Virus record (IMG/VR): IMGVR_UViG_3300045974_000359
Location: 1 to 59,321 of that record
Source: a virus
Taxonomy: Duplodnaviria > Caudoviricetes
Direction: 5' to 3' (one strand)
Length of the DNA stretch: 59,321 bases
A model generated the notes under the pieces. The model searched no databases, had not been told where the DNA came from, and was given only the letters and a program-made list of their open reading frames with translations. Numbering within the stretch: the first letter of the stretch is position 1; each line of letters starts with the position of its first letter. This document shows positions 22,702-29,185 of this stretch, in pieces. Position numbers and translations under genes: made by a program.

Positions 22702-22974
22702 ATGAATCAAATCAAACCGATTGGTGATAGAGTTTTAATTGAACCTAAAGCACCTGAAACGCAAACTGCCTCTGGAATTATCATACCAGAAAGTACTCAA
22801 CAAAAAACTCAATTTGGTACAGTTATTTCTGTAGGTAATGGTAAACAAGGTGAACCCTTGACCGTTAAAGAGGGTGATTCAGTCATATACGAAAAATATG
22901 CTGGAACGGAAATGAAACTTGGAAACAAGGAATATCTTTTAATGAGAGAAGAACAAATTTTAGCAATACTTTAA
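22702..22974 (+). CDS. groES: Co-chaperonin GroES
   Basis: IKPIGDRVLI, TASGIIIP mobile loop, VKEGD.V, KYAGTE, LMREEQILA. Confidence 0.95.
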   Translation: MNQIKPIGDRVLIEPKAPETQTASGIIIPESTQQKTQFGTVISVGNGKQGEPLTVKEGDSVIYEKYAGTEMKLGNKEYLLMREEQILAIL

Positions 22975-23235: not shown

Positions 23236-23674
23236 TTTAGAATTACCAAAGTATGAGACAACTTCTTCAGCTGGGTTGGACTTAAAAGCGTGCCTGATAA
23301 CCGAAAGAGAAAATGAACCAAACGTATTTGATGCGTATGATGAAATAATCGAAGTAGGCAAAAGAAAACTAATTAAGACAGGTTTGTTTTTAGAAATTCC
23401 TCAAGGCTATGAGGCTCAAGTAAGACCAAGAAGTGGATTAGCTTTAAAAAACGGAATAACTGTATTGAATTCTCCAGGCACTATTGATTCAGATTATCGT
23501 GGCGAAGTAGGAGTGATTTTGATTAATCATGGAGATGTTCCTTTCAATATTTCTCATGGAGATAGAATTGCTCAGATTGTTTTCGCTAAAGTTGAGCAAG
23601 CAGAATTGAAAGAAGACATAAATTTATCTGAAACTGAAAGAGGTGAGGGTGGATTTGGAAGTACAGGAAAATAG
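23201..23674 (+). CDS. dut: Trimeric dUTPase
   Basis: [36 protein letters not shown]. Confidence 0.96.
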
Positions 23675-23763
23675 TTTACAAAGTTATACTATATATCGAA
23701 AGATAAAAATATTGAAAATAGAAATCCAAACCCAGCGGTGACGACTTTATGGGATAGGGTGGA

Positions 23764-23835
23764 TGCCGTATAGCTCAGCGTGTAGAGCACCAGAGACTAA
23801 TCTGGAGGTCAGAGGTTCAAGTCCTTTTACGGCAA
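23764..23835 (+). tRNA. Aberrant tRNA-like gene with a 6-nt anticodon loop (GACTAA); isotype undetermined
   Basis: Acceptor TGCCGTA/TACGGCA, D stem GCTC/GAGC, anticodon stem CCAGA/TCTGG, T arm AGAGG-TTCAAGT-CCTTT; D loop lacks GG; CCA not encoded. Confidence 0.75.
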
Positions 23836-24152
23836 CGATTGAATTGTTTGACGTTTTATTGAAATTTTGTTTGGACACGGGTTCGACACCCGTCACCTCC
23901 ACGAATAATTGTTTCCATAATTATTTTGTGTTATTTGATTTGTCCGTAGTAAATAAACGGAATGGTGGAACGTTTACCAGAGTGAGAAAACTGGTTGACC
24001 CTATTCGATGGTAATGAGAATTGAAATAATTTACCGAAATTGGGGGTGAGTTGGTTTTGACAGCAATTAAATAGGTAGAATTTAGATTCAATTAAAAAGT
24101 AACTCCAAAAGTTATAAACCTTTTTGGTAACTCAGTACAGGCTGCTGCGTAA
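23836..24152 (+). ncRNA. ssrA: Circularly permuted (two-piece) tmRNA: acceptor piece ~23836-23901, intervening segment, coding piece from 24042
   Basis: GGAC-ACGGG-TTCGACA-CCCGT-CACCTCC-A precedes GGGGGTG-AGTTGGTTTTGAC; 7-bp acceptor stem with G3.U70; tag ORF ...KVINLFGNSVQAAA* ends at 24152. Confidence 0.9.
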
Positions 24153-24184
24153 CTAAACGAAATTAAAGGATGCGAAAAATCCTT

Positions 24185-24217
24185 AAAAGAGGGGTAAATG
24201 AAAATTTACCCTTTTTA
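24185..24217 (+). terminator. Intrinsic terminator after the tmRNA coding piece
   Basis: ggggtaaa-tgaaaa-tttaccct followed by a T-tract. Confidence 0.75.
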
Positions 24218-24232
24218 TTGTAAATTATTTTC

Positions 24233-24323
24233 TCCACAAAAATAAGGAAAAACAAAAATATTTTAAAAAAAGATTGTAAAAAATTTTTTTCTTTGTAAAT
24301 TTCGTAATATCTTTGTACCATAG
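24233..24323 (+). promoter_or_regulatory. Early host-type promoter region, repeat copy 1
   Basis: TATCTTTG at 24308-24315; ~90 bp similar to 31121-31221. Confidence 0.8.
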
Positions 24324-24381
24324 AACTTTAATAACAGAGTTTATAAAATCAAAAATTAATTAATAAGTAAAATTTTTTATC

Positions 24382-24957
24382 ATGGAAAACACAAATCAAA
24401 AATTCGGAAATGTAGTAGCAGCTTTACAGGCATTAGTTGAAACAGGTAATTTCGTAATCGACTTACAAAAAAATGTTCATTCGACTTCTTACAGAACAGG
24501 TAGTTTAGAACAAGCCTTACAAAAACAAGTTATTGAAGAAACTGTTCATCATTTAGGTGAAGAAGATGAGCAACCTCAAGAACCAACCAGAAGAATCAAA
24601 ATCCAAATTATCGGTTTAGATAATGAAACTACTATTTTGAGAAAAATAGAAATTGCTCAAGCGATGTTTGACGGAACTTTAGAAGAAGTTTTACCAAGTG
24701 AAGAATTGAAAAATTCTGACCGATTGTTAGATTGTTTAGATGGACACTTTGGAGCTGGACCAGAACTTGATAGACAATTTCTTGAATCTAAAAAACAAGC
24801 TGAGATTGCTGCGGAGGAAAAAGACAACAATCCCAGCGATGAAGTTTCTGAAGAAACTGTTCAGGATGAAGTAGAGCAACAAGATTTACCTCAAACTCCA
24901 TACGGTCAAGGTGAGCAACCAACCGATGAAGAAAACCAAGAAACAACTACTAATTAA
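24382..24957 (+). CDS. Acidic early protein of unknown function
   Basis: Single ORF between a host-type promoter and a hairpin terminator (24968-25000); E/Q/D-rich C-terminus. Confidence 0.6.
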   Translation: MENTNQKFGNVVAALQALVETGNFVIDLQKNVHSTSYRTGSLEQALQKQVIEETVHHLGEEDEQPQEPTRRIKIQIIGLDNETTILRKIEIAQAMFDGTLEEVLPSEELKNSDRLLDCLDGHFGAGPELDRQFLESKKQAEIAAEEKDNNPSDEVSEETVQDEVEQQDLPQTPYGQGEQPTDEENQETTTN

Positions 24958-27502: not shown

Positions 27503-29185
27503 ATGATAATTACTCAAGAGGACTTAAAAGTTGTAGATAAATTCGCCAACCCTTTTTCAGCTGACCAGCTGTCTGAGGGTTTTCGGATTTTTGAAGAAAT
27601 CATAAATAATTTAGATGATACAGGGGTAAGAGAATTACTTGGTGGAGATGAAAAAGATATTGATGATGTTTATTCAATAATTCTTGAAGAGACACTTGCT
27701 GTAGTTTATGGTAGAGAAAATAATATATCAAACCGATTAGGATATTTTGACCACTTAACAGGTTCAATTGAAGAAACACTTTGTATTGAAAATCTAACTT
27801 ATTTTATAATTTCAAAAATTCCTGCCTTTGAATTAAATTGGCACCATATGGAATGGGGAGATGTCGTACAAAGATATAATAAGTTCAATATCATTGCGGC
27901 ACGTGACCATGGTAAGTCCTACTATTTCAGTAATGCTTATTTAATTTGGAAATTGTATCGTTATCAACCTTTCATTTCAAAACAAATTAGCAGAAGAGAT
28001 TTATCATTGTCTAAAAAAGGATATTTATTTTCATTTTCTCAAACTCAAGCAACTGACCTTTTAGAAATTTTAAAAGGAACTATTGAAGAGAATGATGATT
28101 TGCGTGATAAACTTTTACCTAAAGGAACGGATGGTTGGGCAAAAACTGAGATAAGATGTAAGAATGGGGCTGGTATAAAAACAAAAGGTTTTGGTTCAGC
28201 AGTAAGGGGTGCTCACCCAGGATTTATAATGATTGATGATGGATTGAAAGATAACGTAATTTATTCATCAGTTCAAAGAAAAAAGTCAATTGATTATTTC
28301 CAAGCGGTTATTATGAATATGATTGTGCCAGGTGGACAAGTAGGAGTTGTAGGAACTCCATTTCATGCTAATGACCTTTATGGAGATTTGAAAAATAAAT
28401 CAGGTTGGCATGTAAGAGAATATCCTGCTATATTTCCAGATGGTACAGTACTATGGCGTGAACGTTGGGGATTCAAAGAACTTTTGGAAAAAAGAGAAAC
28501 CCAAGGAAACTTAATTTTTTCAAGAGAAAATCTTGTTAAACCTGTAACAAATGAAAGTACGATATTTCCAGAGGATGTTATAAAACGTTCATATCTTGGA
28601 ATGGAAGACCATGTATTCGTTAGAAGTAGAGATGCTTTCAAAATGAAATTCGATAGAGTAGTAACTGCTTGTGACTTTAGTATATCATCATCTGTAGGAG
28701 CAGATTACACTGTTATTATCACGGCTGGGATAGATGATAAGGAAAATATATGGTTATTAAATATCACACGTTTTAAAGGCAAGAAATTTAGTGAACAAAT
28801 GAGTATGATTAAACATATTCATCATTCATTTAAACCTGACTTGATTGTAATGGAAAATAACGTTTTTCAACAAATTTTCGTTCAAGAGGGTGATAAGTTA
28901 GGAATGCCTGTTGAGGGTCATACGACAGGAACAAATAAATATGACTTGAAATCAGGATTGCCTGGTGTAGCAATTTTATATGAAAGAGGTAAAATAAGAT
29001 GTCCGAGAGGTAATCAAGAAAGTATTGATATATCAGATGGATTGGCTTTGGAACTTGGAAGTGTAACTTGGACTGAACACGGACTTGAGGGAGTTGGAGA
29101 ACATGATGACCAAGCAATGTGCTTATGGTTATTGACCGTTGGAGTTAAAAAAGTAACAACTGGTTTCTCTTTCAGATTTTTATAA
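27503..29185 (+). CDS. terL: Terminase large subunit
   Basis: AARDHGKS Walker A, RGAHP, IMIDD Walker B, VGTPFH..DLY, nuclease ACD..., HDDQAM. Confidence 0.93.
   Translation: MIITQEDLKVVDKFANPFSADQLSEGFRIFEEIINNLDDTGVRELLGGDEKDIDDVYSIILEETLAVVYGRENNISNRLGYFDHLTGSIEETLCIENLTYFIISKIPAFELNWHHMEWGDVVQRYNKFNIIAARDHGKSYYFSNAYLIWKLYRYQPFISKQISRRDLSLSKKGYLFSFSQTQATDLLEILKGTIEENDDLRDKLLPKGTDGWAKTEIRCKNGAGIKTKGFGSAVRGAHPGFIMIDDGLKDNVIYSSVQRKKSIDYFQAVIMNMIVPGGQVGVVGTPFHANDLYGDLKNKSGWHVREYPAIFPDGTVLWRERWGFKELLEKRETQGNLIFSRENLVKPVTNESTIFPEDVIKRSYLGMEDHVFVRSRDAFKMKFDRVVTACDFSISSSVGADYTVIITAGIDDKENIWLLNITRFKGKKFSEQMSMIKHIHHSFKPDLIVMENNVFQQIFVQEGDKLGMPVEGHTTGTNKYDLKSGLPGVAILYERGKIRCPRGNQESIDISDGLALELGSVTWTEHGLEGVGEHDDQAMCLWLLTVGVKKVTTGFSFRFL

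Follow-up and report, generated by a model that had tools for sequence, protein, structure and literature searches.

A circularly permuted, Bacteroidota-type tmRNA gene in an uncultured phage and a candidate element in its spacer

The virus record IMGVR_UViG_3300045974_000359, whose whole stretch of 59,321 bases is called the window here, contains a transfer-messenger RNA (tmRNA) gene in permuted order: the 3' half, with the T arm and CACCUCC-A, lies 140 nucleotides (nt) upstream of the 5' half, which begins with GGGGGUG, on the same strand (Table 1). We consider it probable that this locus is a working, circularly permuted ssrA gene and that it belongs to a phage-borne family derived from the one-piece tmRNA of Bacteroidota. 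An earlier note, made from the letters of the DNA alone, had proposed a permuted two-piece tmRNA here, and every statement it made about the sequence holds, including the alanyl acceptor stem of 7 base pairs (bp) with G3.U70, the pairing of AGCAA with TTGTT and of more distal segments, the frame that ends in AAA before its stop, and the terminator. A covariance-model match and covariation among 22 family members, both described below, add to that reading.

Rfam 15 contains a general model of permuted tmRNAs, RF04321 (tmRNA_permuted), which matched positions 23843-24152 over model positions 1-213 with 63.5 bits, above its gathering score of 47, and with E 5.8e-10 when the whole 59-kb window was searched; the one-piece model RF00023 reached 25.4 bits only. 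Models of the three classical two-piece lineages all stayed below their cut-offs (alphaproteobacterial 31.5 vs 50 bits, betaproteobacterial 31.5 vs 84, cyanobacterial 24.1 vs 70) and matched the tRNA-like core alone. Known ribozyme and riboswitch families gave no match to positions 23650-24350 at E up to 10. Within the locus, GGGGGUG and CACCUCC (23894-23900 in the DNA) form the 7-bp acceptor stem, followed by the discriminator A73 at 23901; G3.U70 and A73 constitute the identity set of alanyl-tRNA synthetase (AlaRS). The acceptor piece encodes the first C alone of its CCA end, and its T stem (23877-23881 with 23889-23893) closes a loop of 7 nt. The two halves also pair through P2: AGCAA (24062-24066) with TTGTT (23867-23871) as helix P2a, and, according to RNAduplex, 24074-24093 with 23837-23859 as middle and distal helices, the distal one joining GATTCAATT (24085-24093) to GATTGAATT (23837-23845). 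An unconstrained co-fold of the two putative pieces formed the acceptor stem and the T arm. The 381-nt precursor was more stable than 100 of 100 shuffled sequences (z -2.82), and the spacer alone (23902-24041) was no more stable than its shuffles (z -0.65).

Conservation of these helices was evaluated in an alignment of 22 family members, which includes the tmRNA of Maribacter phage Panino and in which the T stem, P2a and the acceptor stem were scored. Pairing cells amounted to 92.8%, compared with 85.6% in shuffles, and the covariation score was 0.245, compared with 0.100 in shuffles and 0.03-0.10 with slid partners; for both measures, 0 of 500 shuffles reached the observed value. Changes on both sides of a pair occurred at three of five T-stem pairs and five of seven P2a pairs, and for nearly all members RNAduplex predicted an extended P2 of nested helices that joins the 5' portion of the acceptor piece to the segment following P2a. 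The closest relative, G194, is a complete phage (86.6 kb with terminal repeats, 100% complete; terminase 80% identical) that carries a permuted tmRNA of 50.1 bits and has kept the whole module, from the tRNA-like gene through the terminator. Compensatory changes separate the two phages in the T stem (ACGGG/CCCGT in the window, GTGGG/CCCAC in G194), in P2a (AGCAA/TTGTT and AGCAT/ATGTT, respectively) and in the distal helix, where one G-C pair has become A-U. Two contigs, one of run X2 (933 nt, spanning 23650-24294) and one of run X3 (823 nt, spanning 23650-24199), which come from independent metagenome assemblies of two other studies, run unbroken through the locus in the same gene order. The listed differences from the window lie in the region upstream, in the D loop of the tRNA, within the 5' portion of the spacer and in the T run of the terminator, and none of them touches the acceptor piece or the coding piece.

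Several observations weigh against a working gene. ARAGORN, which the earlier note had named as a check alongside the Rfam permuted models, called no tmRNA in the window, and confirmation from the proposed programs came from RF04321. The RNA-library runs X6 and X16 gave no cover of the tmRNA pieces. The acceptor stem is invariant across the alignment and adds no covariation support because the search patterns selected for it. Minimum-energy folds favour a 12-bp pairing of 23863-23874 with 24153-24164, which excludes P2a. The window gene has no pseudoknot PK1 upstream of its resume codon, and the codon at the resume position is CCA (Pro), compared with GGC or GGT in relatives. Five phages share the window terminase at 73-80% identity, and the permuted tmRNA is present in G194 alone. 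Finally, searches of the window and of the complete G194 for an SmpB gene found none, and the function of the gene would therefore depend on its fit with host SmpB; the earlier note had spoken of the phage's own ribosome rescue and had suggested a search for smpB elsewhere in the genome, and that part of its proposal finds no support in the window or in G194. Nor does anything in the present analysis support the part against host RNase or anticodon-nuclease defences that the note had considered possible. As to the 12-bp pairing itself, its upstream strand overlaps the P2a strand and the GG of GGAC, its partner lies just after the tag stop, and a similar pairing is possible in G194, as judged by eye from the alignment.

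The tag frame is open across 24075-24152 and ends in GCT GCT GCG TAA, with the stop at 24150-24152. By homology with relatives, translation would resume at CCA 24105 to give PKVINLFGNSVQAAA, and an alternative resume codon, GGT 24126, would give GNSVQAAA; either tag ends in QAAA before the stop, with small hydrophobic residues at its end. In G194, TAACT is followed by GGC AAA GTT GTA AAC CTT TTC AAT AAC CCA GTA CAG GCT GCT GCG TAA, which encodes GKVVNLFNNPVQAAA. Homologous tags occur in locus L235 (GKVINLSQAPVRLAA), in group B (L011, L012 and L087) and in Panino (GKVMNVSFAPTVRQFA); all of these have 15-16 residues and begin with GK, and TAACT before the resume codon is conserved across the window, G194, L235 and Panino. 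The earlier note had implied a short tag frame, which the homologous tags of G194, L235 and Panino replace with a predicted length of about 15 residues. The X2 and X3 contigs likewise have CCA at the resume position, and the resume point may have moved in the window gene. Compared with G194, GGC has changed to CCA at the resume site and AAT to GGT downstream (24105-24128), and a hairpin of CCAAAAG with CUUUUUGG arises within the tag region.

The earlier note had also described the RNA as very compact, with no room for the usual pseudoknot ring, and neither the sequence nor the co-fold revealed a pseudoknot before or after the tag. Only 11 nt (24094-24104) separate the distal helix of P2 from the tag, and a small hairpin and the terminator follow the stop, which leaves no room for PK1 or a pseudoknot ring. 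A PK1 model at 24099-24127 was dropped, since the homologous tag frame contains it and G194 has not retained it. Passages of PMC11915505 indicate that RF04321 itself omits PK1, covers the tRNA-like domain and P2 only, and was built from alpha-, beta- and cyanobacterial sequences.

We propose that a single transcript would comprise the tRNA-like element, the acceptor piece, the 140-nt spacer and the coding piece and would end at the terminator (24191-24216). Host tRNA-processing enzymes would then cut this transcript: the acceptor piece would receive its 5' end through 3' processing of the upstream tRNA-like element and its 3' end through cleavage behind A73 (23901) and subsequent CCA addition, and RNase P would be expected to cleave 5' of G1 (24042). 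The two RNAs would be held together by the acceptor stem and by the long P2 duplex (23837-23871 with 24062-24093). Because no SmpB gene was found in the phage, host factors would be needed: host AlaRS would charge the two-piece complex, and host SmpB and EF-Tu would bring it to stalled ribosomes, where translation would resume just past the conserved TAACT and add about 15 residues ending in AAA. The RNA would work without pseudoknots, with the P2 duplex stopping 11 nt before the tag, where PK1 normally sits. The gene is an accessory one that would add ribosome-rescue capacity during infection.

Other explanations were weighed against this proposal. The tRNA-like domain could instead serve as a decoy or regulator that binds host SmpB, AlaRS or EF-Tu and damps or redirects host trans-translation, the tag frame being unused. 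A decoy would be in keeping with the lack of PK1, with CCA in place of GGC or GGT at the resume position, with the failure to find an SmpB gene in the phage and with a conserved UGGUGGA in the spacer that is able to pair with any tmRNA 3' end; moreover, passages of PMC4131195 and PMC11915505 report that a phage tmRNA consisting of the tRNA-like domain only, that of mycobacteriophage DS6A, inhibits tmRNA. We nevertheless regard a decoy as unlikely, since divergent relatives with different codons retain the tag frame together with the length, the K2 and hydrophobic pattern and the C-terminal A-x-A of the tag, the motif upstream of the resume codon is conserved, and the coding piece is identical in three environmental assemblies.

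Somewhat less probable still is a decaying gene, that is, a family homologue that has lost its function in this phage, with a mutated resume codon and the CCAAAAG hairpin in the old tag. The substitutions of CCA for GGC and of GGT for AAT do create a 7-bp hairpin in the tag region that is absent from G194, and four of the five terminase relatives lack the gene; however, the X2 and X3 contigs match the window throughout the acceptor and coding pieces even though the spacer and the tRNA D loop vary, all helices are intact, and the frame remains open. We find it scarcely credible that there is no gene at all and that the locus is either a misassembly or an attP-type piece of host ssrA that happens to lie next to a fortuitous 5' look-alike. 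Phages often carry ssrA 3' fragments as attachment sites, according to passages of PMC9004378 and PMC11590407, but no integrase gene was found in the window or in the complete G194, and the locus has its 5' half, P2 complementarity, tag and terminator, which also covary. The E-value of the Rfam match argues against a chance look-alike, and the order shared by the independent X2 and X3 assemblies, along with the module in G194, argues against the misassembly that the earlier note had raised. As far as sequence allows, this last explanation is already refuted.

We also examined where the family occurs. Pattern scans of IMG/VR identified 58 loci with the permuted arrangement, 36 that share the T arm of the window gene and 23 that share its 5' end, and RF04321 scored above its cut-off in 19 of 40 records tested. 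ARAGORN called 65 of 91 viral loci permuted and 20 one-piece and left six uncalled, which matters for annotation: ARAGORN misses these six related loci and the window gene, and RF04321 finds the window gene. The tags form two classes, one that begins with ANDN, from loci of 37-44% G+C, and one that begins with G (a few with D), from loci of lower G+C.

Several lines of evidence connect the phage with Bacteroidota. The window terminase is closest to those of Bacteroides phages DAC19-DAC23 and SJC03 (33.5-33.7% identity over 97% of the length, E 5e-93). The bin of an uncultured Bacteroidales genome includes a 97-kb contig (G041:C5) on which a permuted tmRNA of 64.3 bits accompanies the gene for a terminase 59% identical to that of the window; the G041 genome also has its own one-piece ssrA (128.7 bits) and smpB. 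A set of 76 bacterial one-piece tmRNAs from many phyla has the 29-nt T arm in common. Eight of these carry the window's P2a signature, GACAGCA...TGTT(T)GGAC, and the record titles assign all eight to Chitinophagaceae or Prevotellaceae. A separate scan for the 5' motif matched at least 120 contigs of bacteria; Bacteroidota is named in 79 of the 80 titles listed, and the remaining title gives no taxon. The Bacteroidota-type phage of the earlier note is supported by the terminase, the G041:C5 contig and the titles of the 5'-motif contigs; we regard the source as an uncultured freshwater phage whose host is probably a member of Bacteroidota.

Outside viral records, a search of genome contigs with terminase peptide patterns found no relative. 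Within a sample of 151 genomes of the same phylum, RF04321 scored above its cut-off in G041 only. Matches below the cut-off (28-41 bits, model positions 1-213) were seen in 21 other Bacteroidota genomes (e.g., L200-L210), and these could be divergent permuted genes or noise. Permuted genes were also present in two further Bacteroidota genomes, G199 and G200, in neither of which the window terminase was found. The G199 gene (G199:C2:583162-583446; L250, L358 and L360) scored 67.1 bits, encodes the tag GNKTIQMFTPSLRMAV and adjoins a P22-like portal gene and two DNA methylase genes; its place beside that portal gene within a 675-kb Paludibacter contig indicates that this copy is prophage-borne.

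The tags of the one-piece locus L068 (GKNIFGRIADKV...) and the permuted locus L070 (GKNIFNAIRNKV...) are homologous at the nucleotide level, which indicates that one-piece and two-piece forms coexist in one phage tmRNA lineage. From this shared tag and from the P2a and 5'-motif signatures, we infer that the permutation arose within phage-borne tmRNA genes of Bacteroidota type, independently of the three classical lineages. An origin within phages from a one-piece gene of Bacteroidota type is the best reading of these signatures, which stand here in place of a rooted tree. The earlier note had suggested an independent permutation in this phage; the gene does lie outside the alpha-, beta- and cyanobacterial lineages, whose models fail on it, whereas the permutation is a property of a whole phage family, including Panino, whose gene is already labelled in GenBank.

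Panino provides the closest annotated comparison. Its tmRNA (GenBank PP540027, positions 27557-27889) is permuted like that of the window, scores 62.2 bits with RF04321, and has a Bacteroidota-type 5' end with P2a AGCAG/CTGTT. TAACT is followed by GGT AAA GTT AT..., the start of a tag homologous to the window's; a hairpin follows the tag, as in the window; and tRNA genes stand on both sides, one of them directly upstream, as in the window. The host of Panino is a flavobacterium, a member of Bacteroidota, which matches the links of the window phage. The two genes differ in the resume codon (GGT in Panino, CCA in the window) and in the spacer, which in Panino is 47 nt long and lacks the hairpin-UGGUGGA element described below. 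Passages of PMC11590407 describe Panino as a marine podovirus with an integrase, in which it differs from the window phage, and mention its tmRNA in passing, with no mention there of the permuted form. When the window gene, three related phage genes and the Panino gene were compared with 50,697 phage records by blastn, only T-arm-sized matches or self matches were returned, and blastn drew no link between the window gene and the Panino gene. Like the Panino family, the window gene lacks pseudoknots, has a tRNA-like domain and P2a of Bacteroidota type, and encodes a GK(V/I)-type tag, about 15 residues long, that TAACT precedes and a terminator directly follows; the sole exception is its first tag codon, which is CCA and not GGY.

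Two groups of known tmRNAs each share part of this design. The two-piece tmRNAs of alphaproteobacteria, a betaproteobacterial lineage and cyanobacteria (RF01849, RF01850 and RF01851) have in common with the window gene its gene order, the joining of two RNAs by acceptor stem and P2, and fewer pseudoknots than in one-piece forms. Unlike them, the window gene has a tag that is not of ANDN type and a tRNA-like domain and P2a with the Bacteroidota signature. Bacteroidota one-piece ssrA (RF00023) has the same acceptor, T arm and P2a signature as the window, and its tags begin with G, as do the tags of the window's relatives, but it has the standard order, a length of about 370-400 nt, a pseudoknot ring and tags of 9-10 residues. 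Among phages, PMC9004378 attributes, in the passages on this subject, two-piece tmRNAs to 53 of 133 unique phage tmRNAs called by ARAGORN, mostly marine and of alphaproteobacterial or cyanobacterial type. The marine myophages treated in those passages (OM43 phage Melnitz, pelagimyophages and cyanophages) resemble the window phage in having a permuted ssrA that is accessory within the phage group; they differ in that their two-piece tmRNAs are of alphaproteobacterial or cyanobacterial type, and Melnitz has a glutamine riboswitch. Passages of PMC4131195 list phage tmRNAs of the one-piece form only, and one tmRNA is recorded in Cellulophaga phage Calle (PMC8776804). A literature search found no paper that describes a permuted phage tmRNA of Bacteroidota type, leaving aside supplementary tables of PMC11915505 and PMC9004378, which possibly list such entries. 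The window gene is a new member of a phage family that is present in public records and for which no description was found; it is not new as a kind. Textbooks treat tmRNA permutation as an oddity of three bacterial lineages and some mitochondria; this gene adds a phage-borne lineage without pseudoknots, probably derived from Bacteroidota. Its homologous one-piece and two-piece forms offer a natural system for how permutation arises and how little RNA trans-translation needs, and both questions are directly testable because the family has a cultivable member, Panino on Maribacter.

The spacer of the window gene contains a hairpin (23943-23961; stem TCCGT 23943-23947 with ACGGA 23957-23961) followed by TGGTGGA (23963-23969), which is the exact complement of the last seven nt of the mature tmRNA, U70-A76 (UCCACCA). 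Among unique permuted genes outside the ANDN class with spacers of at least 65 nt, TGGTGGA occurs in 19 of 24 and GGTGGA in 20 of 24, although these 24 genes represent about ten spacer lineages because eight of them belong to one close group. TGGTGGA occurs in none of 11 short spacers and none of 23 ANDN-class genes. The hairpin abuts the invariant motif, its stem differs in sequence in all 20 examples examined by direct stem search, and TTT stands just before the stem in 10 of the 20; RNAalifold gave no pairs for it because MAFFT misaligned the 5' strands. Of 18 unique one-piece viral tmRNAs, 9 contain hairpin and motif as well, located 3' of the tag; among bacterial ones the count is 1 of 107. 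The element is carried by the spacers of the window, L012, L087, L070, L227, L082, L026, L015, L044 and L217 and by the one-piece bodies of L060, L064, L068, L069, L076, L088, L232, L238 and L186, and the tmRNA 3' terminus is the sole partner present in all nine of these motif-bearing one-piece RNAs. Elsewhere the motif is scarce: TGGTGGA was found in 0 of 87 further Bacteroidota one-piece calls, GGTGGA downstream of one-piece genes in only 4 of 99 bacterial and 1 of 28 viral 3' flanks, and TGGTGGA showed no enrichment across the whole window (5 matches vs 3.2 expected). No Rfam family matched 23943-23969, and no paper on a hairpin-UGGUGGA element was found.

We tentatively suggest that this is a phage-specific anti-3'-end element that pairs with the UCCACCA of tmRNA or tRNA-Ala and acts as a clamp or switch that guides folding or processing of the split precursor, as a gate on aminoacylation, or in trans as a block on host tmRNA. 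Of these we lean towards a clamp or switch that would act on the 3' strand of the acceptor stem in the course of folding or processing. A simple chaperone role is disfavoured, since relative to the 3' end the element is upstream in one-piece genes but downstream in permuted genes, and genes with short spacers manage without it. If functional, the hairpin-UGGUGGA would become the first cis element known to target the 3' end of tmRNA, and an anti-3'-end element, if true, would be a new, phage-specific regulatory principle of trans-translation; it is the part of the locus most deserving of experiment.

Table 1. Features of the permuted tmRNA module, in window coordinates
Feature	Position	Strand	Evidence
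tRNA-like gene	23764..23835	+	Rfam tRNA 55.4 bits; two-base anticodon by ARAGORN; 6-nt anticodon loop; conserved in G194
Acceptor piece (tmRNA 3' half)	23837..23901	+	RF04321 alignment, sequence, covariation of T stem and P2a
Contents of acceptor piece: P2 3' strands 23837-23871, GGAC, T arm 23877-23893, acceptor 3' strand 23894-23900, discriminator A73 23901			
Intervening segment, 140 nt, presumably excised	23902..24041	+	lies between A73 and G1; varies in X2 and X3 while mature pieces are constant
Conserved spacer element (hairpin and TGGTGGA)	23943..23969	+	motif counts and stem search
Acceptor 5' strand GGGGGUG (G1-G7)	24042..24048	+	sequence, RF04321, co-fold
P2 5' strands	24062..24093	+	nested duplex by RNAduplex; P2a covariation (22 sequences); distal-helix change in G194
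Tag reading frame (predicted)	24105..24152	+	homology to tags of G194, L235 and Panino; conserved TAACT before resume codon
3' end of coding piece: small hairpin 24167-24183, terminator hairpin 24191-24211, T run 24212-24216	24167..24216	+	sequence; hairpin found by scan; relatives share the layout of tag then terminator

The window has a G+C content of 28.6% and a completeness of 60% as estimated by CheckV, and nearly all of its open reading frames lie on the + strand. PHROGs matches include a large terminase, a portal, a head protease, a helicase and an SbcC-like nuclease. Genes for Cpn10 and dUTPase lie just upstream of the tmRNA module and one for an RNase T-like exonuclease lies downstream; the Cpn10 (GroES) co-chaperonin gene, at 22702-22974 (Pfam 107 bits), is the third gene upstream of the module. 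The stretch 23650-24350 is present in DNA contigs from pond, freshwater and microbial-mat metagenomes of three studies.

No sigma-70-like promoter was found in 23400-24500, and the Bacteroidota promoter motif TAnnTTTG was not enriched in the window (119 matches vs 104 +/- 12). The motif CAAAGTTAT(A) occurs just upstream of the module (23679-23687) and after terminators in related phages, and also upstream of the acceptor pieces of L011, L012, L087, L146 and L070; it may be a candidate phage promoter. The window has four exact + strand copies of CAAAGTTAT(A), and the enrichment of CAAAGTTAT is weak at best (59 matches vs 44 +/- 7, reached in 2 of 100 shuffles).

Rather than decode, the tRNA-like gene that immediately precedes the acceptor piece may provide a handle for processing. 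Stop-codon recoding was excluded as the cause of this odd tRNA, as TAA, TAG and TGA close 36, 6 and 3, respectively, of 45 window open reading frames. Its 6-nt anticodon loop is kept in G194 despite compensatory changes in the acceptor and other stems, and tRNA-like genes with a 6-nt anticodon loop also adjoin the acceptor piece on its upstream side at L217 9294-9366 and L225 431-503. In L070 (459-530) and L084, a complete tRNA-Glu gene lies inside the spacer, directly before the coding piece, and in several other relatives tRNA genes flank both pieces.

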